Assembly: GCA_965242725.1 (NCBI GenBank)
Contig: CBDESZ010000026.1
Location: 32,001 to 96,000 of the forward strand
DNA from: Alkalispirochaeta sp.
GTDB taxonomy: Bacteria; Spirochaetota; Spirochaetia; DSM-27196; Alkalispirochaetaceae
Length of the DNA stretch: 64,000 nucleotides
Direction: 5' to 3'
Each line of letters starts with the position of its first letter. Position 1 is the stretch's first letter. The notes beneath the pieces were generated by a model. The model was not told where the DNA came from. It ran no database searches and saw only the letters and a program-made list of their open reading frames with translations. Positions 41,709 to 53,329 of the stretch are shown here, piece after piece. The translations under genes and the position numbers were made by a program.

Positions 41709-41942
41709 ATGAAAGTAACTCTTACCGTTACCGACAGGGGTTCGGTGACCCTCCCTGCGAGAATGCAGAAAGAGATGGGAATCGGAGCGGACTCGCTGCA
41801 TATCGCCGAGTCAACGGAAGAGGGAATACTCCTTCGGCCTGCCGTAGCCCTTCCGGTAGAGGTTTACACCCGGGATCGTCTCGAGGAGTTTGCGGCCGCA
41901 GAACGTGCCGTGGATGAATGGTACGGTGAGTCATCGCAGTAA
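41709..41942 (+). CDS. AbrB/MazE-like antitoxin
   Basis: VTDRGSVTLP..EEGILLRPA. Confidence 0.8.
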   Translation: MKVTLTVTDRGSVTLPARMQKEMGIGADSLHIAESTEEGILLRPAVALPVEVYTRDRLEEFAAAERAVDEWYGESSQ

Positions 41943-41945
41943 GTG

Positions 41946-42011
41946 ATGCGAATATTCGTGGATGCAAACATCCTTTTTTCCGCCGCATATGCCGACCTTC
42001 GTGCTATCTGA
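41946..42011 (+). pseudogene. truncated PIN-domain toxin (21 codons)
   Basis: MRIFVDANILFSAA directly after the antitoxin, then stop. Confidence 0.7.
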
Positions 42012-42476
42012 CCTTTGTGACCCCCATTCCCCTGGGAAGAGCCGGAAAAATGACGTCTTTTGTTCCATACCGGACTTCCGGCGGGTACCAGACATAGCAG
42101 GGTTTTCCATCGTGGCCGGGATCGATAAGGATCATCAGCAGCTCGGGATAGGTGATCATCTTGGAAAATGGTCCCGTCTCGCCCCGGTTCAAGATGTGTA
42201 TGGCATCCTCTTCCGATGTATGTTCCGGGAACTCCGTGCGGCCGTAAAAAGCGGCGACGTAGCGGACGGCGGCATACCGGGGAAATCTCGGCCTGGCCGC
42301 CTCGCGTTCAAAAAACTCCCGGTCCGCTTCAAGACACGTTTCAAACTCGTCCCATTTCACACCGATCGTTTCTGGATATTCCGCTGAATCCTGCCACCCA
42401 TTCCGACGTAAACCTGCCACCTTGGGAGGGTTTGCAACCTCGCGTCAGCCAGCATAGGGTGCCGGCAGGTTTGGCG

Positions 42477-43211
42477 TCAATCTGAAGTGCTCTTTCGGCG
42501 TCTACTCGCTCCTTTTAGTTCAAATATCCATGGTGTATGGGCAAGGCGATCCATGATCGCGTCGGCGATAGTTGGCTCTCCGATGATTTCGTGCCACGCG
42601 CCAATCGGCACCTGGCCGGTGATGATCGTACCGGCTTTGTTATACCGGTCGTCGAGTATCTCGAGAAGGGAGAGGCGGTCATCGGCGTTCAACGGGCTGA
42701 GTCCGAAGTCGTCGATGATGAGTAATCCGGTTTTGGCAAATCGCCTGATCTCGTCGAAGTAGCTCCCGTCGGCGCGCGCAAGCCGGAGCGTCGGAAACAA
42801 TTTGGTTGCCCGCACGTAGCGCGTAGATATCCCCCGGAGACACGCTTCATGACCGAAAGCACAAGCGAGGTAGCTTTTCCCGGCGCCGGTCGGTCCGGTA
42901 ATGAGCATGGTCTCGCCACGCTCAACCCATTCCATTGTGGAGAGATTGCTCACGGTATCCCGGTCGAGATTGCGTTCCGGGCTGAACTCAATGGCATCGA
43001 TCGCCGCGGGGATACGTAGACCGGCCTGACGGAGCAGCCGTTCGGTCTTTCGTGTTTTTCTGAGATTCAATTCCGCCTCGGCCATCTGGGCAACGAGCTC
43101 ACCGGTGGTCGGGGCACTATTCGGCCCAAGACGGGCCGAGGCTTCGTATACGTCGGCCATTGCAGAAAGTTTCAGCGTCCGCAGCGTTTCAACGGTTTGT
43201 AGACGGTTCAT
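42477..43211 (-). CDS. istB: IS21 helper ATPase
   Basis: GPTGAGKS, LIIDDFG, ADAIMDRL. Confidence 0.95.
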   Translation of the reverse strand: MNRLQTVETLRTLKLSAMADVYEASARLGPNSAPTTGELVAQMAEAELNLRKTRKTERLLRQAGLRIPAAIDAIEFSPERNLDRDTVSNLSTMEWVERGETMLITGPTGAGKSYLACAFGHEACLRGISTRYVRATKLFPTLRLARADGSYFDEIRRFAKTGLLIIDDFGLSPLNADDRLSLLEILDDRYNKAGTIITGQVPIGAWHEIIGEPTIADAIMDRLAHTPWIFELKGASRRRKSTSD

Positions 43212-44797
43212 ACGTGCACTCCGTGGCGTTGGTAGGAGGCACGACCGCGAATATTGCTGTGAGGAGGAATTGAGCGGTCTGATTCGTCGGGTTCACCTGC
43301 CGATGTATCGAGTCCACGCTCAAGAATCCGTTTTAGATTCTTATAGGTCGGTACGCCGATCGTATTAGCGAAGCGACACGCCGCCTCGAGACGAGTGCGA
43401 GAATACGTCTTGGGAAGATTGAGGATACCCAGGCAGCTTTTGAATGCCTGTTGCGGCACCTCCCGGGCATCGAGCACCGCCTGAATGCACCGTTCTGTTT
43501 CCGGCCCGATATCCGCCGCCCACGAAAGGAGCCTGTCCGGACCCAACTCGTCGTGGAAGCGGTGTTCCGGTGTCATATGGTCGCGATTGGTCGTGTACTG
43601 ATGCGCTCCCGTTTCGCGACGGTGAAATGCGATCCTCACGTTCTTGTGGTAAATCTCTATCTCTCGGTGGGTATAGGAGATACGCACTTTCAGTCCGCGA
43701 TAATCGGCAGGAACGCTATAGTAGTGTTTATCCACCGGGAAGAAGACGTGGTAATTCTTTTGCACGGTGATCGGGCTGGTATAGAGCCGGACCTCATATG
43801 GTTCGGCAGGCAACGGACGAAGGCACTCCTTCTCGATCGCATCAAACCGTTCTTTCCGGCTGATGCCGACTTTCTGCATCGCTCGATCATTCAGACCGTC
43901 CAGGTTCTCCCACATCGCCGTGTTCAACTCGTCAACGGTGGTAAACGTTCGGTTCCGCAGCGGTGCAAGAATGCGCGTGTAGACCAGTCGTACCGCAGCT
44001 TCCACCAACGCTTTATCTCTCGGTTTCTTGACGCGCGCCGGCACAACGGCGCATCCGTAGTAGTGGCTGAAGACATCAAACGAAAAATTGATTCCCGGCT
44101 CGTATCGACTTGGTGTATCCACCGCCGCTTTCAGATTGTCGGGGACGAGGATTTTGGGAGCGCCTCCGGCATATTCCATCGCGTGGGTGGTGCAGCGAAT
44201 GGTGTGTTCGGTGTCCTGCGATATCGTCGCCTCGGTGTAAATCAATCCGCCTGAGGGAAACACCGCCACATACAGTTCCACAGGGATATGAATCCCCGTT
44301 TTCGGATCGACGATGAACGGACGGTCTCCGGCATAGTCGAGAAACATCTTTTCCCCCGGCTCGTGATGGAGGTGCATCGATAGTTCCGAGTCCTCCGTGT
44401 ACATCCGCATGTGCTGACAGAACTGGGAATACTGATACCCCTCGGGGTGCTCGGCGATGTATTCTTCCCACAAAATCTGTCGGGTCACCACGCCCATACG
44501 GTCGCGGCGTCGCCCCAGCTCGTTGACCATTCCCGGCATCAGATTCATCAGAACTTCGTATCGTGGATCATGACGCCGTGTTTCGCTATCCCGCAAACGC
44601 TCGAGCAACTCATCGTCGCTCATCGTCTCCACATCCGCCCATTTCAGTCCGGCATTTTCTGCCTGTTTGAGATACTCCGTCACCACCGGCCGGGATACGG
44701 CCAGTGCGCGGCTGATCTTCCGGATGGATAATCCGGAAGACTCGTTCAACCGAATGATTTCTCGTATTTTACTCATGCTGATCCTCGCTTTCGGCAT
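43208..44797 (-). CDS. istA: IS21 transposase
   Basis: MFLDYAG, VPDNLK, PRDKALVE, YYSVP; SD GAGGAGG. Confidence 0.95.
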   Translation of the reverse strand: MPKARISMSKIREIIRLNESSGLSIRKISRALAVSRPVVTEYLKQAENAGLKWADVETMSDDELLERLRDSETRRHDPRYEVLMNLMPGMVNELGRRRDRMGVVTRQILWEEYIAEHPEGYQYSQFCQHMRMYTEDSELSMHLHHEPGEKMFLDYAGDRPFIVDPKTGIHIPVELYVAVFPSGGLIYTEATISQDTEHTIRCTTHAMEYAGGAPKILVPDNLKAAVDTPSRYEPGINFSFDVFSHYYGCAVVPARVKKPRDKALVEAAVRLVYTRILAPLRNRTFTTVDELNTAMWENLDGLNDRAMQKVGISRKERFDAIEKECLRPLPAEPYEVRLYTSPITVQKNYHVFFPVDKHYYSVPADYRGLKVRISYTHREIEIYHKNVRIAFHRRETGAHQYTTNRDHMTPEHRFHDELGPDRLLSWAADIGPETERCIQAVLDAREVPQQAFKSCLGILNLPKTYSRTRLEAACRFANTIGVPTYKNLKRILERGLDTSAGEPDESDRSIPPHSNIRGRASYQRHGVHV

Positions 44798-45242
44798 TCG
44801 GTTCCTCCTCATCAATCACGATGACGAGATCCAACGTTTCTTGCGAGGATGCAAATCTCCATTCCGATACAAACCTGCCACCCGTTACGATGACCGCCGA
44901 AAATTGGCAGGTTTACGTCGGAATACCCGGCAGGTTTAGCCCGGAATGGGTGGCAGGTTTAAATCGTAACAGCCGGCAGGTTCGGGGCGTAATTTCCAGT
45001 TTCGAGGTAGGGGAGGGGGATGCGCTTGTCCATCGCGTCATAGCGACGTCGCTGATGGTCGAGTCGTCGTGCAAAATTGGGTCGTTCCGTATCGTAGCCG
45101 AGGGCTCTCCCGATCGTTCGACGTGCATCAGGTCCGGTAAAACTTTTACTTTTCCAGGCGACATATCGTTTGGTATAGAAAAACCGTTCGTATCCCGGCG
45201 TCCGATTGTCTTTCGGTACAAAGGTGTCAAAGAAGTTCGCCT

Positions 45243-45398
45243 TCATGCTTCTGTATCCCGGAAAAAGTCCCTGCCGAGTTTTTCCCGGAGTTCCCGAGTA
45301 TCAATATCCATGAGGGCACGGATTCCTTTAATGACCTGCCGTGCGTATGCCGATCCGGCATCAATTGTTTCTTTGAATAACTGCTTTTCCGTCTGCAT
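45243..45398 (-). CDS. small hypothetical protein, 51 aa (absent from ORF track)
   Basis: MQTEKQLFKETIDAGSAYARQVIKGIRALMDIDTRELREKLGRDFFRDTEA; SD AGGAGG; ATGA overlap with the next gene. Confidence 0.75.
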   Translation of the reverse strand: MQTEKQLFKETIDAGSAYARQVIKGIRALMDIDTRELREKLGRDFFRDTEA

Positions 45399-45479
45399 AG
45401 ACTGCTCCTCCTGTATAGGTGATCCGAGCAGTGCGTACGGTGTACAGGCAGAAACTTCCGGCAGGCAGTGAATACCTTC

Positions 45480-45597
45480 TCACATCGTTCCGGGACGCGC
45501 TGTCATATGCGTCTCCAGTCGGCTGTGGCACCTTGCCGTGGAGGCAGGTTGCCGGGCGATCTCAGGGCCGTTTCCCTCACGCCACTCGTGATGTTGG
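45480..45597 (-). ncRNA. SAM-I (S-box) riboswitch
   Basis: P1 ACAUC/GAUGU; AUCACGAG; kink-turn P2 GGCG..GAGGG-AAACGG-CCC..GA-UCGCC; P3 GGCAACC..GGUGCC; L2 CGG complementary to J3/4 CCG; P4 present. Confidence 0.88.
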
Positions 45598-45601
45598 GTA
45601 A

Positions 45602-45630
45602 AACCTATCAGATATGGCATCGCCTGTCAA
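45602..45630 (-). promoter_or_regulatory. sigma70 promoter for the riboswitch transcript
   Basis: TTGACA-17 nt-TAGGTT with TG extension, just upstream of P1. Confidence 0.7.
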
Positions 45631-45700: not shown

Positions 45701-46693
45701 CTACCGGTACCGCCCCGCCGTCTCCTGAAAACACTTCTTTGCCCGCTCCCGAAGTTCCGGCGGCTCCAGGACTTCCGCATTGGGACCCCACTGGGAGACC
45801 CAGAAAAGCACCTGCGACTGCTGGTTGGTGCGGAAACGGACGATAATGCCGCCGTCGGGGAGGCGTTCCACTTTCTGATCGTGGTGCCAGCGTCGCTCGG
45901 GGATTTTGGTGGCCGCCTCGCCGTCAAACCTGACGGCGATATCCACGGCGCCCTCGTTGACGAAGACGCCGAATGACGGGTCGATGTAGCTTTCCACAGA
46001 GAACCCGTCGGGACGGGTGAAGGTCTCCTTGCGAAGACGGGCTTGTTTGATCCGGTAGAGGGCGTAGATCCGTACCTCCTCGTGGTGGTGGGACCAGCAC
46101 AGCAGGTACCATTCACCGCGATGACCGACGAGATGCAGGGGATCAATGACGCGGATCGCCGTCTTGTCGTGCGCCGGTGCCTGGTAGTGGATTGCGATGG
46201 TGCGCTGTTTGTAGAGACCCTCCCGGACGACCGACCACACCTTCTTGTCGATCCCGGTGACGGGGTCGGAAATCACCGAGACGTGGGCGACGAGATCCTC
46301 GGAGCTGACGGTGACGTTGTCCGGAAGGAGGGTAGCGAGGCGCTTGTAGACGGACCTGAGTTGTTCATACCAGGGGCTGTTGCGATAGCCTTCCAGGGCG
46401 CGGTCGCCAACCATCAATGCCATCAGATCGCCCTCGGTGAGGTCCAGCGCCGGCAACTGCCAGGACATATCGCCGTAGTAGAAGCCTTTTTGGTGCCTGT
46501 CGAACTCAATGGGGGCGCCCCGGTCCCTCATCTTCTCGATGTCCCGCTGGATGGTACGGGTGGTGACCTCTTCAATGTTTTCATCGGACAGACCGCGAAC
46601 GATGTCCGCAGCGGAAGGGTAGTCCCGTTTGTTCCGAAGGCGTCCGTCGATATAGGCGATTCTGGTGGTGATGGCGCGGTAGCTCATAGGCAT
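45701..46693 (-). CDS. WYL-domain transcriptional regulator (wHTH-WYL-WCX)
   Basis: TRTIQRDIEKMR HTH, IDPLHL..WYL, EVLEPPELRE. Confidence 0.93.
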   Translation of the reverse strand: MPMSYRAITTRIAYIDGRLRNKRDYPSAADIVRGLSDENIEEVTTRTIQRDIEKMRDRGAPIEFDRHQKGFYYGDMSWQLPALDLTEGDLMALMVGDRALEGYRNSPWYEQLRSVYKRLATLLPDNVTVSSEDLVAHVSVISDPVTGIDKKVWSVVREGLYKQRTIAIHYQAPAHDKTAIRVIDPLHLVGHRGEWYLLCWSHHHEEVRIYALYRIKQARLRKETFTRPDGFSVESYIDPSFGVFVNEGAVDIAVRFDGEAATKIPERRWHHDQKVERLPDGGIIVRFRTNQQSQVLFWVSQWGPNAEVLEPPELRERAKKCFQETAGRYR

Positions 46694-46763: not shown

Positions 46764-47162
46764 TCAGCCGGATCCGCGCAGCACTTCCAGAAAAACGCGT
46801 GGCGACACTACGAGCTTTTCGGGAGGAAAGTGTTTGTCGTTTCCCGTGACGAGATAATCGGCACCGCCCGAAATCGCCACCTCGTAGAATGGGATGTCGT
46901 CGGAATCAGGAACCACTTCCTTGGCGGGCGCGGCGGTAATGTAGGTGCTGTCGTATTCCAGGTACTCCAGGAGTGACTGGATGTAATCAACGGGAAAGTG
47001 AAACTTCGGACGTAGAAGAACTTTTCGATATTCGGATAGAATTCGATCGTCGACAAGGACGGTCACCGACTTGTTGAGTACGGCGTTGAGAATCGAGCCG
47101 GGTGCTCCATGTGGATTCAGAACTCCGGAAATCAGAACGTTGGTATCGAGAACAATGCGCAC
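46764..47162 (-). CDS. PIN-family putative toxin
   Basis: IVLDTNVLIS, DSDD, LVTGNDKHF. Confidence 0.88.
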   Translation of the reverse strand: MRIVLDTNVLISGVLNPHGAPGSILNAVLNKSVTVLVDDRILSEYRKVLLRPKFHFPVDYIQSLLEYLEYDSTYITAAPAKEVVPDSDDIPFYEVAISGGADYLVTGNDKHFPPEKLVVSPRVFLEVLRGSG

Positions 47163-47446
47163 TAGGAACGCTCACGACGAACCGCGTCGATTTCGGCCTG
47201 TATCTCCGCTTCGGTCATTGTATCGAGCCCGTTCTCTTGGGCGGTTTTCCGCAACTGACGAAGCGCATTTGCCGCTCGGGCGCTGCGAACTGCAGACAGC
47301 GTTTCTTCAAGTGTCTCCCCTGAAAGTGGAGTGAGCAATGCGATCGGCTTTCCGTTGTTTGTGATCACCATCTCCTGCTCCGTCGGAAGCTGTTTCCAGA
47401 TTGCCGCCGGAGAGGTTCGGATGTCACGGACGGTGATGAACTTCAT
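47162..47446 (-). CDS. Phd/YefM-like antitoxin
   Basis: ITVRDIR, VITNNGKPIALL; coupled to the PIN gene. Confidence 0.85.
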   Translation of the reverse strand: MKFITVRDIRTSPAAIWKQLPTEQEMVITNNGKPIALLTPLSGETLEETLSAVRSARAANALRQLRKTAQENGLDTMTEAEIQAEIDAVRRERS

Positions 47447-47501: not shown

Positions 47502-49814
47502 TTAAAACCCAATCCCCCGCGTCCGGTCCCGGCTCCGGGCGTTTGACAGGATCTCTCCAACGACGACGGCAGCCTGCACCGGGACTGCCGGCTCCTCCGT
47601 CAATGGCGTCTCGTCCCTCCCAATCTCCAGCATCTCCGCGGCCGTGGCGAGGTCGCTCATCATGAGGGGAGGCCCCTGCCCGAGGGCGGCGATATCGCCG
47701 TCGGTAAAGGTGACATCCGGAAAGATGTAGGCCAGTGCCGGGCGCAGCACATCTTCGTCGATGGCACCGAAGGTGACGTGCTTGTGGAATCGTCTGCGGA
47801 GGGCGGGGTCCACGGCGTCCACCCGGTTGGTGCAGGCGATGAGGATTCCGCTATACTCCTGGATCTACTGGAGGAACTCGGCGATTTGGGAGTGCTCCCA
47901 GGAGCGATGGGCGATGGACCGATCGTAGAGGAGGGCGTCTGCCTCGTCGATGATAAGGACCGAGCCGGCACGGGCGGCGGTGCGGAATGCCGCTGCGATC
48001 TGCTCTTCCGACTCTCCCACATATTTTGAGAGCAGGTCCGACGGGCGCTTGAGCAGGACGTCCCGGCCCAGGCGCTTTGCGAGCCACAGGGCGTACTGCG
48101 TCTTGCCGCCGCCGGGAGGCCCGCCAAAAAGGAGGCGCAATCCCTGTCCGGCCTGCGCGCGATGCGACGCCTGGCGTTCAACTCGATCCAGAGATTCCGA
48201 AGTGGAACAGAATCGGGGGTCGAAGGAGCGGGCGACCGTCGGCAGGCGGCGGACGTCACGGGCGAGGGCGCCGGTGGAGATCCGGTCGATGTAGCCGGAG
48301 ACGCGCCGGTGTACGTCGGCGGGACTGAGGTGCCCGGTGTTCAGTTCCGCGGCGATGATCCGGGCGGTACGGTCGATGGCGGCAGGGGTGATGTCGTATC
48401 GTGCGGCGATGTCGTGGAGCAAGGGGGCGATCCCGGCCGGATCGTGAACGAGGGGTGAGAGGCGTTCCGTGAGCATCCGGACTCTCGTGTCGATGGCGGG
48501 GCGGGGAAAGGCGAGGACGTGACCGAAGCGGCGCATGGCGGAGGTGGGAATCATGCGGTGGTCGTTGGTGATCCAGACGGTGGCCACCGGAAGGTGCTCG
48601 AGCAGGTCGTTGAGGACTCCCTTGTCGTAGCTCCCGCCGTCCAGACCGCCCCCCAAGAGGCCGAAGAAGGCGGCGGCGCTCTGGAGAATGGAGTCGGCTT
48701 CATCGATGATGAGGACGTCCGTGGCGGGGGAAAGCAGATTGGCTGCCATTCGGATTGCATTGAAGCGGCTCCCTTCCGCTTCGGCGCGACGTGGTCCATG
48801 GGAGTATTCGGACCGGCGGTTTTGCGCCGCGAGGGTGTGACCGGTGAGACCGAGGGAGTGGATGAGAGCGCGGGCAAACTCGGTCTTGCCGATCCCCGGC
48901 TCTCCGGCGATAAGCAGGGGGTAGACGCCGCGGACCGCTGCGGCGCAGGTGCGTATTTCGTCGGCGGGCAGCGGGAACTCGTCGAGCGGGAACCGCGGGG
49001 AGGGTGTGTCGTCAAAGAGCCCGGCCGTGAGGTCATCGAGGGTGTCGGATCGGAGTGCGAAAAGAAGGGGACGGCTGACGTTGATATCGAAAATTTCGTC
49101 GCGACCGCCCCGGAAGGCGATGAGACCGAGACGCTCCAGGGGGGAACCGGGGGCGGTCTCCCGGACAAAGGCGGGAACGTCGGTGTCGGCGGCGTCTGCA
49201 ATGATCGACATCTGGGTGCGATGGGTTGCCTGATGCATGAGGCCGGCCATCGGTTCGATATCCTCGAGGGTGTACAGTGCCATGAGAATCCGGATGTCGA
49301 GGGGCGACAGGGTGAAGATGCGGGCAATCTCTTCGACGATCGGCGGGAAGGGAGGGAAGGGCGGGACGGACTCCGCGCCGGCGCTGCTTTCTTTTGCGTC
49401 TATGTCGTCTTTGTTGTCGGCGTGGTCGTTCCGGTCGACCTGGTAGACCAGGTCGGCGATGAGATCCACGACGATGGGGTGGATCGTCTCGTTGTTGCGA
49501 CCGATGCGGTAACAGATTTGCCGCAGGCGGCGCGGGGACGCGTGCGGGGCCTCCAACTCGCTGACCGCGTCCGGCGGCAGTCTGAGGAGTTCTTTCTGCT
49601 CCAGTATGCGGGCGATGAGGGTGTGAAGTTCTTCCGGCTCGGAAACCGTAAGGGCAAACTGGACGAGGTCGTCCGATGGCGAGAGGTGTTCAGCGCATAT
49701 GCGAAAGACGTAGCGGTGGTACGCCTTCCAGTGCGTGTCTATCGGTCTCTGAAGGCGTGAGCGGCCTCCGCGCTTCCGGGTGAGGTGTTCATGGTGTCGT
49801 TGTTGTGGCGTCAT
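47502..49814 (-). CDS. double-AAA+ ATPase with an in-frame TAG at 47865-47867
   Basis: GEPGIGKT/LIIDEAD and GPPGGGKT/LIIDEAD; frame continues past the TAG as IQEYSGILIACTN..DPALRRRF..GIGF. Confidence 0.88.
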
Positions 49815-50507: not shown

Positions 50508-50618
50508 GTTCGAGGCACGCCACGATACCGTTTTACCAATGCAAAACATATTAGTTGTTTTCTGGTGCATAGAGGATAATATAATATATGTGGGCATATA
50601 ATTATAATGGAGGCGACG

Positions 50619-50849
50619 ATGGCACAGGTGACGATTTATCTTGATGAAGCTCATGAAAGGCGGCTTCGGAAGGCGGCGGAGGATGCGGGGATGCCGGTGA
50701 GCCGGTGGGTTGCGGCTCTCATTGAACGGTATACTCGGACCGAGTGGCCTGCTGAAGTGCGTGACGCCGCCGGATCGTGGCCGGATGCCCCTGATGCAGT
50801 ATCATTGCGAAATCCGTCCGGCCGGGATGTGCCGAGAGAGTCGCTATGA
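50619..50849 (+). CDS. CopG/RHH-type VapB-like antitoxin
   Basis: MAQVTIYLD..SRWV..AGSWPD; overlaps the VapC start. Confidence 0.8.
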   Translation: MAQVTIYLDEAHERRLRKAAEDAGMPVSRWVAALIERYTRTEWPAEVRDAAGSWPDAPDAVSLRNPSGRDVPRESL

Positions 50850-51250
50850 CCTACGTTCTCGATACCAATACGCTCATATATTTTTTCAAGGGCCAGGGCG
50901 GCGTGGCGGATACGCTCCTGAGTACTCCGCCTGCGGAGGTTGCAGTGCCGGCAATCGTGGTGTACGAGTTGGAGACGGGAATCCGTAAGTCGTCACACCC
51001 GGAGAAGCGGACGCGGCAATTAAGCTCCCTTCTCGATGCCGCCCGGGTGCTGCCGTTTGATAGGGCGTGCGCGACCGAGGCGGCGCGGGTGCGGGCGGAG
51101 CTCGAGGCATCCGGAACACCGGTCGGTCCCGTGGACGTACTCATTGCCGGTACGGTGATAGCCTGTGACGGCGTACTGGTTACCCACAATGCGGACGAGT
51201 TTAGACGAATCTCCGGATTGCGCATCGTCGATTGGTACCGAATGACCTGA
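50846..51250 (+). CDS. vapC: VapC PIN toxin
   Basis: LDTNT, YEL, GPVDVLIA, LVTHNADEF. Confidence 0.9.
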   Translation: MTYVLDTNTLIYFFKGQGGVADTLLSTPPAEVAVPAIVVYELETGIRKSSHPEKRTRQLSSLLDAARVLPFDRACATEAARVRAELEASGTPVGPVDVLIAGTVIACDGVLVTHNADEFRRISGLRIVDWYRMT

Positions 51251-51339
51251 TCGAGAAGCATAACCGGATAGAACCGGCACCCTCGTGGTATACTTGCATG
51301 ACTTCTTCCGCTAAGGGGTCGGCGTTGCGTATATCGCGA

Positions 51340-52269
51340 ATGTGGATAATCTCCGGGCTGGTACTCATTCTTATTGTTTCGGGCATTGCGACGCGTATAT
51401 TGGTCCGCGACGCGCGACCGCTCAGGGGACCGGCGCTGGATGACCTTGATTTTCAGGAAGTGTCGTTCCCGAACAGGGAAGAAGGGTTGCTTCTCGGTGG
51501 ACTCCTCTTCCTGCCGGGCCAACGGCAGGATATACCCGCGGTGGTCATTATCCATGGCTCCGGAACGAGCAGACGCGACAACTCATGGTACCTTTCCGTT
51601 GCCGGCTATCTACAGGAACGAGGTGTGGCGGTACTTCTTCCTGACAAACGGGGATCGGAACGCTCCGAGGGAGACTGGCGCACCGCTGGTTTTGCAGAGC
51701 TTGCTTCCGATGCGATCGCCGGTGTCACGTTTCTTGAGTCGTACGAAATCGGCGATTTCTCGAAGATCGGCGTGATTGGCATGAGTCAGGGCGGACAGAT
51801 CGCCCCGATCGCCGCGACCATGTCGGATGAGGTTGACTTCGTCATCAGCGTATCCGGATCGGCAGTACCTCTGAGGACACAGCTGTTCTATGAAGAAAAT
51901 CACAATCTTCGGGAGCTGGGCGTTCCTCCGCTTCTTTCCAACGTGCTCGCCTACCCTGCGGCCTGGAGTATCATCTATCTGCGGCAGCGGGACTTCTGGA
52001 CGGCGATCGGAAACCCCGACGCGCTGCCCAACTGGAATCAAGTGGATGTGCCTTCGCTCATCCTTTACGGTTCGGACGACACAAATGTACCGGTAACCCG
52101 CAGCGTGAACAGACTGCGTTCACTGGACAAGGAGAACCTGCACATCAACGTCTACCGGGATTCCGGGCACGCTATCGAGGATCCGCCGGGACGGGGTGAT
52201 CGCATCGTCAGAGAGGAAGTTCTCGAGGACATCGTAAGCTTCATCCGAGGGGTCCCCGGACCGCCTTGA
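51340..52269 (+). CDS. alpha/beta hydrolase, membrane-anchored or exported
   Basis: HGSG, DKRG, GMSQG nucleophile elbow, D and GH triad; start uncertain (alternative 51298). Confidence 0.82.
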   Translation: MWIISGLVLILIVSGIATRILVRDARPLRGPALDDLDFQEVSFPNREEGLLLGGLLFLPGQRQDIPAVVIIHGSGTSRRDNSWYLSVAGYLQERGVAVLLPDKRGSERSEGDWRTAGFAELASDAIAGVTFLESYEIGDFSKIGVIGMSQGGQIAPIAATMSDEVDFVISVSGSAVPLRTQLFYEENHNLRELGVPPLLSNVLAYPAAWSIIYLRQRDFWTAIGNPDALPNWNQVDVPSLILYGSDDTNVPVTRSVNRLRSLDKENLHINVYRDSGHAIEDPPGRGDRIVREEVLEDIVSFIRGVPGPP

Positions 52270-52300
52270 CCACCGGAATCGGAGCGCTCATTATGGAGTC

Positions 52301-52657
52301 ATGGATGCGAGGGAGACGTTGCGGCAGTTTTACCGGGACCGGGCGACCCGGAAGCGGGAGGATGTCCGGGAACGACGGGAGCGATTTGAGGCGCTTCTTC
52401 CGCATATTGTTGACGGTATTCTGGAACGCGACCCGGAGGTCTCCCGGATCATCCTCTTTGGATCCCTTGCGGAACGGAACGAAGGCGTCGTCAGGGATAT
52501 CGATATCGCCGTCGAAAGCACCGACTTTCTCAAGGTGAGCGGGTGGCTCTTGAGTCTGTCTGAACCTGTTGATGTCGTCGACTTGAACGATCTCTATCCC
52601 CATATCCGGGAGCGGGCGGAATCGAAGGGCAGGGTCCTGTATGAACGACGAGACTGA
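52301..52657 (+). CDS. minimal nucleotidyltransferase (MNT) antitoxin
   Basis: LFGSLA..DIDIAV, VDVVDL. Confidence 0.85.
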   Translation: MDARETLRQFYRDRATRKREDVRERRERFEALLPHIVDGILERDPEVSRIILFGSLAERNEGVVRDIDIAVESTDFLKVSGWLLSLSEPVDVVDLNDLYPHIRERAESKGRVLYERRD

Positions 52658-53117
52658 TCGCGCACTGCTGATAGCGGAGCTGGAAGGTGATCTGGCGGCG
52701 CTTCCGGAACTCCTGGCGAGCAATCACAAAAGTATGGAGCGAATCGGTGCGGGAGCAACGGACGATCTGGATTATGCAGCTCTCGGATACACTCTTCATA
52801 ATCTGTACAACCTGATCGAAAATTCCTTTTTTCGTATAGCAAAGCATTTTGAAAATGAACTCGGCAGTGAAGGATGGCACAAGGAGCTTCTGCATCGGAT
52901 GACCCTTTTCATCGAGGGAATCCGCCCGCGGGTAATCGACCGGCCGACGGCGGAACAGATTGATGAACTGAGAGCCTTTCGCTACGTTTTTCGGAATATG
53001 TATCGAAAAAGCCTTGATCCGGAGAAGCTGCTCCTCCTTCAGAAACGGCTGCCGGATATCGTGGATGCCTGGAGACGGGCAATACAGGATTTCATTGACC
53101 TCCTGAAGACCCTTTGA
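52641..53117 (+). CDS. HEPN (HepT-like) protein
   Basis: LHNLYN..E, WHKELL, LRAFRYVFRNMY; overlaps the MNT gene. Confidence 0.8.
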   Translation: MNDETDRALLIAELEGDLAALPELLASNHKSMERIGAGATDDLDYAALGYTLHNLYNLIENSFFRIAKHFENELGSEGWHKELLHRMTLFIEGIRPRVIDRPTAEQIDELRAFRYVFRNMYRKSLDPEKLLLLQKRLPDIVDAWRRAIQDFIDLLKTL

Positions 53118-53206
53118 TCGCTAGGAACAGCACGCCCGGCAGCCAACCGATCCGGGCGGCGGCGTCGGACAGAGGCGCGGCCCCGCGGGACGCCCGGCGT
53201 TCAATT

Positions 53207-53248
53207 AAAAAAAAGAAAATAAAAAAACCCGCCGCAAAGCGACGGGCT
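53207..53248 (-). terminator. intrinsic terminator downstream of tRNA-Asp
   Basis: GCCCGTCGC-TTT-GCGGCGGGT plus long T tracts on the minus strand. Confidence 0.8.
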
Positions 53249-53255
53249 TGAAGGT

Positions 53256-53329
53256 CGGGAGTGACGGGGATCGAACCCGCGATCTCCGGCTTGACAGGCC
53301 GGCGCGATAACCAACTTCGCTACACCCCC
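53256..53329 (-). tRNA. tRNA-Asp(GTC), CCA not encoded
   Basis: acceptor GGGGGTG/CACTCCC, anticodon arm CCGGC-CTGTCAA-GCCGG, T loop GTTCGAT. Confidence 0.95.

Follow-up and report, generated by a model that had tools for sequence, protein, structure and literature searches.

A SAM-I riboswitch ahead of orphan mobile genes in an Alkalispirochaeta island, and a possible class of SAM-gated cassettes in spirochaetes

The island and the broken operon

We have analyzed a window of 64,000 nucleotides from Alkalispirochaeta sp. (assembly GCA_965242725.1, contig CBDESZ010000026.1, positions 32,001 to 96,000; coordinates below count from the first base of this stretch). It contains a SAM-I riboswitch and the small operon behind it, both on the minus strand, inside an island of toxin-antitoxin and regulatory genes. 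On the 5' side of the riboswitch and on the same strand, Pfam matches identify a HTH-WYL-WCX regulator (45701..46693; WYL E 7e-17, WCX E 3e-16), a Phd/YefM antitoxin and PIN toxin pair (46764..47446), a two-domain AAA ATPase (49814-47865, with its tail in a separate frame at 47822-47502) and a DSP-type phosphatase (50539-49940). The remainder of the island (50607..53329) holds a RHH/PIN pair, an alpha/beta hydrolase, a MNT/HepT pair and a tRNA with anticodon GUC, which is the likely edge; no repeat of the tRNA 3' end appeared in the window. The other edge may be marked by an orphan MazE/AbrB-like antitoxin on the plus strand (41709..41942; Pfam MazE_antitoxin E 2.5e-4), with 62 bases between its end and the 3' end of the last gene of the operon. 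Its PIN partner is missing here, and the pair is present in loci L009 and L011. Neither an integrase nor an att repeat was found in the island. The AAA ATPase (window 47502-49814) consists of 649-aa and 106-aa frames, compared with a single 798-aa frame in genome G009, and is the third damaged gene of the island. Two-domain AAA ATPases lie near the cassette or its genes in this genome (G000), G009, G494, G209, G140 and G084 (contig C58).

The operon itself starts with an ORF of 51 codons (45243..45398, minus strand), whose stop overlaps the start of the next gene (ATGA). This ORF corresponds to a shortened form of a 141-aa protein encoded at the equivalent place in another genome of the set (G015, contig C322). 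BLASTP aligned its residues 1-34 with 1-35 of the longer protein (46%) and its residues 27-47 with 110-130 (48%), so that only the two ends are covered and the middle is missing. In a phage collection, that middle resembled two hypothetical proteins of one Thiohalocapsa phage (38% identity, E 6e-3), while an Atlas search with the 141-aa protein gave nothing at or above 0.9. The second gene, of 203 codons, is split. Its 5' part (82 codons, 44999..45246, minus strand) carries a XRE-HTH-like region and is 73% identical to the intact homologue P0002; the frame runs 13 codons on into an insertion sequence and stops at 44959. Its 3' part (121 codons, 42004..42372, minus strand) codes for a small alpha/beta domain for which no fold was clearly matched. 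Among the named homologues of this gene, the closest is labelled Alkalispirochaeta sp.

The interrupting element (42373..44998, minus strand) is a member of the IS21 family, as indicated by its istA (44776-43208) and istB (43211-42477) genes, TGG...CCA ends with 23-nt internal repeats, and the 5-bp target duplication GAAAC that flanks it; the Pfam matches were IstB_IS21 (E 3e-61) and Mu-transpos_C_2. Elsewhere in the genome there is one partial copy (97% over 506 nt, contig C16), together with three short end-like matches. Three separate copies of the 203-aa gene are interrupted: the one described here, P0006 and that of G015:C322. P0006 begins with a peptide of the right end of the same IS21 at another insertion position, and the G015:C322 copy is close to a contig end. 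Since the 203-aa gene is split by the IS21 and the 51-aa ORF has lost its middle, the output of the switch is probably dead in this genome, the switch itself being intact. The earlier note on this DNA had taken the 51-aa and 203-aa proteins as the targets. This holds in part, as intact 203-aa homologues exist, but here the second gene is not an open frame and the first keeps only the ends of the 141-aa protein. Its description of the targets as genes with no recognizable role in sulfur metabolism was borne out: no Pfam family of that kind was found in the ORFs of the window or in 95 homologues.

The SAM-I aptamer and its promoter

A Rfam covariance search, which the earlier note had proposed as a check, found the SAM-I (S-box) aptamer RF00162 at 45597-45479 on the minus strand. 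The match reached 55.8 bits (E 3.6e-10; the gathering cut-off is 44.4 bits), spanned model positions 1-108, i.e. the whole model, and was the only one in the assembly (4.3 Mb in 34 contigs, 92% complete). P1 is 5 bp long. The L2-J3/4 pseudoknot CGG/CCG was found between 45570-45568 and 45522-45520, and the GA motifs of the P2 kink-turn are visible in the Rfam alignment. We compared this leader with its relatives by using eight non-redundant aligned leaders of the same switch clade, a set that does not include L014 (a duplicate of the G009 locus), L012 (nearly identical) and L016 (which has no downstream gene or platform). The pseudoknot keeps GG/CC in all eight and the third pair in six. Nine positions in P1, J1/2 and P3, chosen and numbered after what we take to be the SAM contacts of the T. 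tengcongensis structure, are invariant in 8/8. An altered ligand such as SAM-AMP was considered and set aside, the nine contact positions being unchanged. The complete SAM-I fold described before is thus there, with its pseudoknot and SAM contacts kept. Judging by the RF00162 score, the contact bases, the pseudoknot, the kink-turn and the two-state platform described below, the sequence of this RNA makes it a member of the SAM-I class.

Just upstream, at 45602..45630 on the minus strand, there is a promoter-like sequence formed by TTGACA (45630-45625), a 17-nt spacer and TAGGTT (45607-45602). The TTGACA recurs at about the same distance in four close relatives. The -10 box has only three of the six consensus bases, preceded by a TGn extension, and was absent from the list produced by a consensus promoter scan. 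The promoter proposed earlier is therefore present as a sequence, with a -35 box that recurs in relatives, but its -10 box is weak. A transcript from it would begin at about position 45597, where the aptamer starts.

Expression platform and predicted switching

There was no terminator-like site between the aptamer and the ATG, in agreement with the lack of a U-tract terminator remarked upon before. Instead, the predicted fold contains the hairpin that had been proposed to bury the ribosome binding site (45401..45432, minus strand), in which the anti-SD ACUGCUC (45432-45426) pairs with GAGCAGU (45407-45401), enclosing CCT-ATAC-AGG and with it the SD AGGAGG (45412-45407). Between this hairpin and the aptamer, folding also gave a GGUA-loop-UGCC hairpin followed by UGCCGG (45458..45476, minus strand). 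The UGCCGG can pair with the aptamer sequence CCGGCA (45555-45550) in the SAM-free fold, and this 6-bp helix is kept in 5/5 close leaders, including changes from G-C to G-U. In the predicted open state the anti-SD is sequestered by nested helices between the platform and the 5' half of the aptamer; the pairing partners vary in sequence among the leaders yet still pair.

In the folding model, the cost of opening the region from SD to AUG was 13.7 kcal/mol with the aptamer locked versus 6.0 with the aptamer free, and freeing the aptamer reduced this cost in 8/8 leaders, which are related and hence do not amount to eight independent tests. Shuffled aptamers attained the value of the free state in 0/25 cases for this leader and in 0-2/25 for the others. 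The translational control suggested by the earlier note is thus favored by a folding model that is backed by a shuffle control, and the predicted behavior is that of a translational switch, OFF with SAM bound and ON at low SAM.

Between this leader and its four closest relatives, 107-111 of the 121 aptamer columns are identical, versus 34-55 of the approximately 80 in the platform. Specifically, in the comparison with G015, the aptamer is identical in 111/121 columns and the platform in 34/80, and within the gene behind it 67 of the 137 codons for the same residue differ in sequence. As far as aligned sequences can tell, the constraint on the aptamer is much stronger than that on its flanks.

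SAM-I linkage in related genomes

We have examined the 22 genomes of the same family and found SAM-I matches in four of them. In G015 there are two. On contig C289 the switch lies directly before an intact 203-aa homologue with housekeeping genes at either side, and on C322 it precedes the 141-aa gene and a 203-aa homologue. In G005 and G009 the genes that follow the switch are unrelated orphans (144 and 115 aa), amid helicase, AAA, DSP-phosphatase and toxin-antitoxin genes. A metagenome pattern scan for this SAM-I clade added six stretches: one has an intact 203-aa gene behind the switch (L017), two repeat the G009 locus, two have another orphan there, in one case broken, and the last has no gene. 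The same scan pattern had no matches in viral contigs. Altogether the same switch clade heads at least five unrelated genes, and broken or missing genes follow the copies of G000, L013 and L016. A pair of small protein and HTH-like protein as a fixed unit, as in the earlier description, did not survive this comparison, because in G015:C289 and L017 the switch is followed immediately by the 203-aa gene, without a small ORF between the two.

At the level of the order, we found 12 SAM-I matches in 10/99 genomes, and the gene after the switch had a metabolic Pfam family in 0/12. A class-wide sample gave SAM-I in 8/151 genomes, and there the eight other matches included three before MetQ-, MetK- and MetN-like genes and two before amidohydrolase-like genes, as judged by eye. 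Ordinary S-boxes therefore exist in the class but not in the clade of our switch. The metK gene of G000 has no S-box upstream, which indicates that the switch arrived as part of the cassette and senses the SAM pool of the host. A met gene deleted from behind the switch was considered as the origin of the linkage and discarded, given the intact 203-aa homologues that follow the switch and the 0/12 metabolic targets in the order. The view of the linkage as non-accidental is strengthened by these data, no relative in the order having a met gene in that place, and by the finding (see below) that homologues follow two classes of SAM switch.

Other orphan families with no Pfam match are located behind SAM-I in two other genera of the order, one of about 240-270 aa (L203, L204 and L208) and another of about 185 aa (L205-L207). 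The targets in G615, G616 and G618 gave a first impression of being SAM-lyase-like that was not borne out.

The 203-aa protein family

The homologues that we have located come from Spirochaetota genomes and one metagenome pattern scan. The family comprises 129 clusters at 50% identity and has a patchy distribution, being found in 9/401 genomes of the phylum (G000 included) and in 2/22 of the same family as G000. None of the libraries recognized it: there was no Pfam match in the 95 homologues, nor any match in PHROGs or PADLOC, and PADLOC 2.0 (library of 2023) gave 0 families for seven switch-controlled proteins. In phage and plasmid collections the family was not found with the one query used, and no record matched P0009 or the G494 protein.

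The predicted structure (pLDDT 93) has a helical N-terminal domain and a small alpha/beta C-terminal domain. By VIA-align, the first of them (approximately residues 20-105) gave alignments to numerous XRE structures, at Z values (3.1-4.1) that are within background, and Pfam HTH_3 was not matched by any of the 95 members. However, the SAM-gated cassettes of G494, G209 (two loci) and G140 contain XRE-like proteins, with no Pfam match either, that are homologous to this N-terminus; a profile of four such sequences matched it by hhalign at 89.5% (E 2e-6). Taken together, a Z of about 4 and the four-sequence profile suggest that the N-terminal half is XRE-HTH-like, in keeping with the HTH-like second gene of the earlier note. 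Foldseek gave nothing at E <= 0.001 in PDB or BFVD for the protein, and the nearest Atlas clusters were mostly viral hypothetical proteins (0.93-0.94). Several candidates for a fold match were rejected. The best VIA-align scores, Z 5.0 with the whole protein and 5.9 with the C-terminal domain alone, were to a flagellar microtubule protein and within background, and the alignments to Dmd, AcrIF9 and the T3 lyase (Z 3.4-3.9) do not count as evidence. The T3 SAM lyase scored Z 3.4 against the C-terminal domain (rank 22, within background).

SAM-II switches ahead of the same family

In G376 and G084, two distantly related spirochaete genomes, the 203-aa homologue sits behind a different leader, of the SAM-II class. 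We derived a search pattern from these two leaders, and it recovered at least 118 genome loci, mostly proteobacterial; among the matches listed, most precede metZ-, metK-, metH-, metN-, metY- or sulfonate-transporter-like genes, as read by eye. Of 20 loci scanned, only four gave RF00521 above its cut-off at the pattern site. Two viral matches of the pattern had no 5' motif and were set aside. We built a covariance model, R1, from 52/104 pattern copies with the G084 and G376 leaders excluded. It scored the G084 leader at 53.8 bits and the G376 leader at 46.0 bits, values that are not fully independent since the copies were themselves picked by the pattern. With RF00521 both leaders are the best match in their own genomes, at 26.6 and 20.1 bits, below the cut-off of 36. 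Any R1 match was found in 4/151 genomes of the phylum, and whole-genome searches with RF01726 gave no match at the loci of the 203-aa family. The common SAM-II lineage (L052-L169, GCCGAUUUGA...CUUGCGGGC...CAGCUAAAGCG) is mostly under the RF00521 cut-off. Several of its copies (L119, L129 and L166) are found before non-metabolic genes, RadC-, HD- or phosphoesterase-like by eye.

The same protein family is thus located behind SAM-I and SAM-II, two structurally unrelated folds. Among the nine other genomes in which a protein search found the 203-aa gene, three (G015, G084 and G376) have a scored SAM switch directly upstream. The leader of G345 is SAM-II-like at 14-15 bits, below the threshold, and was not counted, and five (G191, G218, G393, G330 and G265) have no SAM switch upstream. 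SAM control is therefore not obligatory for the family. The expectation that homologues would follow SAM riboswitches and lie in defence islands was borne out for the switch in these three of the nine genomes and not in the five with none, and in G376 and G015:C289 the surroundings are housekeeping genes.

A pool of cassette genes and SAM-lyase relatives

The operon of G084 consists of a SAM-II switch, the 203-aa gene and two further genes, B (190 aa) and C (145 aa), which recur elsewhere. In a Melainabacteria record gene B comes directly after a SAM-II copy, and in G265 it forms a fusion with the 203-aa family. Gene C occurs at 13 places in 10/401 genomes, and five of the 13 (G084, G104, G239 and twice in G209) have SAM-II of at least 22 bits upstream on the same strand within 7 kb. 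As for the other places, G140 has a 19.5-bit SAM-II copy, G175 a weak copy downstream, and six have no copy in the regions fetched.

The SAM-lyase family PF23780 is rare in the phylum, with genes above the cut-off in 3/401 genomes. Two of these, G104 and G239, have it downstream of a SAM-II copy, and the gene of the third is at a contig start. G000 gave no PF23780 match. On contig C10 of G104 (L186:8363-12700) the operon behind the SAM-II switch contains three matches to PF23780 together with a DUF3293 protein. The element that carries it also has three tyrosine integrases, a Phage_CRI-type rep and RNase H. On contig C15 of G239 (L199:40-3405) a SAM-II-like switch of 22.2 bits is followed by an orphan, a lipoprotein-like gene, a fusion of C with a SAM lyase, and DUF3293; upstream of the cassette there are a 486-aa orphan and a sequence resembling a tRNA, the latter detected by eye. 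Partner genes common to the cassettes link those of G104 and G239 to the 203-aa family.

Both switch classes are found in tandem on contig C400 of G494 (L187:5632-5935), where SAM-I (69.1 bits) and a SAM-II/V-type switch (16.6 bits, over the SD) precede a XRE-like orphan. From this comparison of sequences, the 203-aa gene seems best explained as belonging to a pool of orphans that mobile islands of spirochaetes have placed behind either class of SAM switch. Two SAM-II-gated orphan operons are also found approximately 30 kb apart on contig C3 of G209 (L225:5156-7570 and L226:10896-15658). One has tandem SAM-II copies, a XRE-like gene, B and C, and adjoins McrBC; the other has a HD-domain gene and a two-domain AAA ATPase.

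A possible role for SAM-gated cassettes

SAM riboswitches are textbook feedback devices of methionine metabolism. The mechanism that we envisage for the cassettes would keep the switch and change its output. With SAM bound, the aptamer would fold on itself and the downstream hairpin would bury the ribosome binding site. Once SAM becomes scarce, a long nested helix between the platform and the 5' half of the aptamer would sequester the anti-SD, allowing translation of the operon. The ancestral output would have been the 203-aa protein, with its XRE-like HTH and unclassified C-terminal domain, with or without the phage-like 141-aa gene before it. Low SAM might signal a starved host or weakened SAM-dependent restriction, upon which the HTH protein would launch the programme of the element. 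We infer that the cassette reads low SAM as a signal of conflict.

We tentatively favor a role on the side of the element, in which the cassette acts for the mobile DNA, a reading with the chances somewhat against it that is based on the sister cassettes linked to integrases and rep, their SAM-lyase-family genes and the phage-like partners. The neighboring genes (WYL, toxin-antitoxin pairs, McrBC, GmrSD) would be just as much at home in a defence island. In a host-side alarm, a phage SAM lyase would drain SAM and the cassette would be translated, leading to dormancy or death or turning on neighboring defence genes. The predicted direction of the switch fits such an alarm, and so does the company of the cassettes, which are found amid WYL, PIN, HepT, Fic, REase-ARP, McrBC, GmrSD and C5-methylase genes, while HsdM is present elsewhere in G000. 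The T3 SAM lyase is reported to defeat type I R-M and BREX (10.1101/2023.02.27.530186). The three separate interruptions of the 203-aa gene are what is often seen for costly genes, although IS-rich islands break genes regardless. On the other hand, no target had a PADLOC match, the island of G000 contains no SAM-dependent defence system, and in G376 and G015:C289 there is a bare switch and gene among housekeeping genes. Besides, the sister cassettes themselves encode SAM-lyase-family proteins, so an element-side role fits at least as well as defence. These genes do not settle the role, since the family also holds defence-side SAM-AMP lyases (PMC12255297). Overall we consider the alarm rather unlikely.

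The cassettes could also belong to a general starvation response with no genetic conflict, in which the level of SAM would report a shortage of methionine or sulfur and the outputs would be stress or repair genes. Such shortage is the ordinary trigger of SAM switches, a switch that came with the cassette and reads the host pool would respond to it, and the bare cassettes outside islands would be expected. But the patchy spread (9/401 genomes, 2/22 in the family), the shuffled gene content and the phage-like or SAM-lyase-like partners are untypical of a core stress regulon, and we find this option unlikely. Finally, the promoter and riboswitch of a met operon might have been carried into islands by accident, to serve now as mere promoter and ribosome binding site with SAM sensing irrelevant. 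Copies before at least five unrelated genes, or before broken or missing ones, would agree with this, as would the fact that most family members from the protein search have no scored switch. It is hard to reconcile with an aptamer far more constrained than its flanks and with all its SAM contacts kept, with a two-state platform predicted in all eight leaders, with the lack of a met gene after any of the 12 SAM-I matches in the order, or with the recruitment of one family by SAM-I and SAM-II, a relative in G494 being behind both types in tandem. We regard such an accident as very improbable.

Returning to the element-side reading and the host alarm together, both would fall under a broader proposal, to which we give a little less than an even chance: that spirochaete islands harbor a distinct class of SAM-gated conflict cassettes, with a XRE-like lead gene and in some cases SAM lyases, which have recruited SAM-I and SAM-II independently. 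A drop of SAM would be the trigger in an arms race over DNA methylation, the cassette being either a guard against phage SAM lyase or a self-reinforcing switch of the element. Several unannotated protein families would in this way be tied to one signal, SAM. With a phage SAM lyase as the trigger, an RNA would be detecting an enzyme of counter-defence; with a cassette that works for the element, the mobile DNA would take its timing from the condition of the methylation defences in its host.

Relation to known systems

The G000 RNA resembles SAM-I (RF00162) in having the whole aptamer, P1-P4, the pseudoknot and the SAM-contact bases. It differs from the usual SAM-I in being located before orphan mobile genes rather than met, cys or SAM genes, in its 5-bp P1 and lack of a terminator, and in a predicted ON state that pairs most of the aptamer 5' half with the platform. 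SAM-I and SAM-II are treated as separate general classes, with RF00521, RF01726 and RF01826 in the SAM-II grouping, in the section of the review dealing with them (PMC5473149). The leaders of G084 and G376 belong to the SAM-II class and the G000 RNA does not; other copies of that lineage are mostly before met and sulfur genes, while those in spirochaetes head orphan cassettes. The 203-aa N-terminal domain aligns with XRE/Cro HTH regulators (PDB 5woq, 3f6w and C.Csp231I, 3lfp; Z 3.1-4.1, within background). Unlike them, the protein has no Pfam HTH_3, and its HTH-like part is joined to a domain that matched nothing clearly (best Z 5.9). As to phage SAM lyases and SAM-AMP lyases (PF23780), putative members identified by sequence are found in the SAM-II-gated cassettes of G104 and G239 and none in the window or in G000. 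Loss of SAM is reported to induce the met regulon of E. coli, in passages that make no mention of riboswitches (10.1101/2023.02.27.530186).

Riboswitches on phages and prophages are called rare in the relevant passage of PMC5473149, with c-di-GMP-I in C. difficile prophages and glutamine aptamers in cyanophages. In both those cases and ours a metabolite switch is carried on mobile DNA, but the ligand differs, and that passage has no SAM example. The relevant passages of PMC2864571 add nothing on spirochaetes. A full-text literature search, in a collection with few subscription journals and confined to main texts, returned no report of SAM riboswitches gating island or defence genes; gene-context tables such as those of PMC2864571 and PMC5473149 may list such cases. 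What we describe is an ordinary aptamer in a role for which we found no published report, with good comparative support and a broken copy in G000. Its targets lie outside the S-box regulon, having no Pfam family of Met, Cys or SAM synthesis or transport. An unusual S-box target of another kind was detected by eye in G395, where short SAM-I switches (L174 and L179) precede paralogous N-formylglutamate amidohydrolase-like genes.
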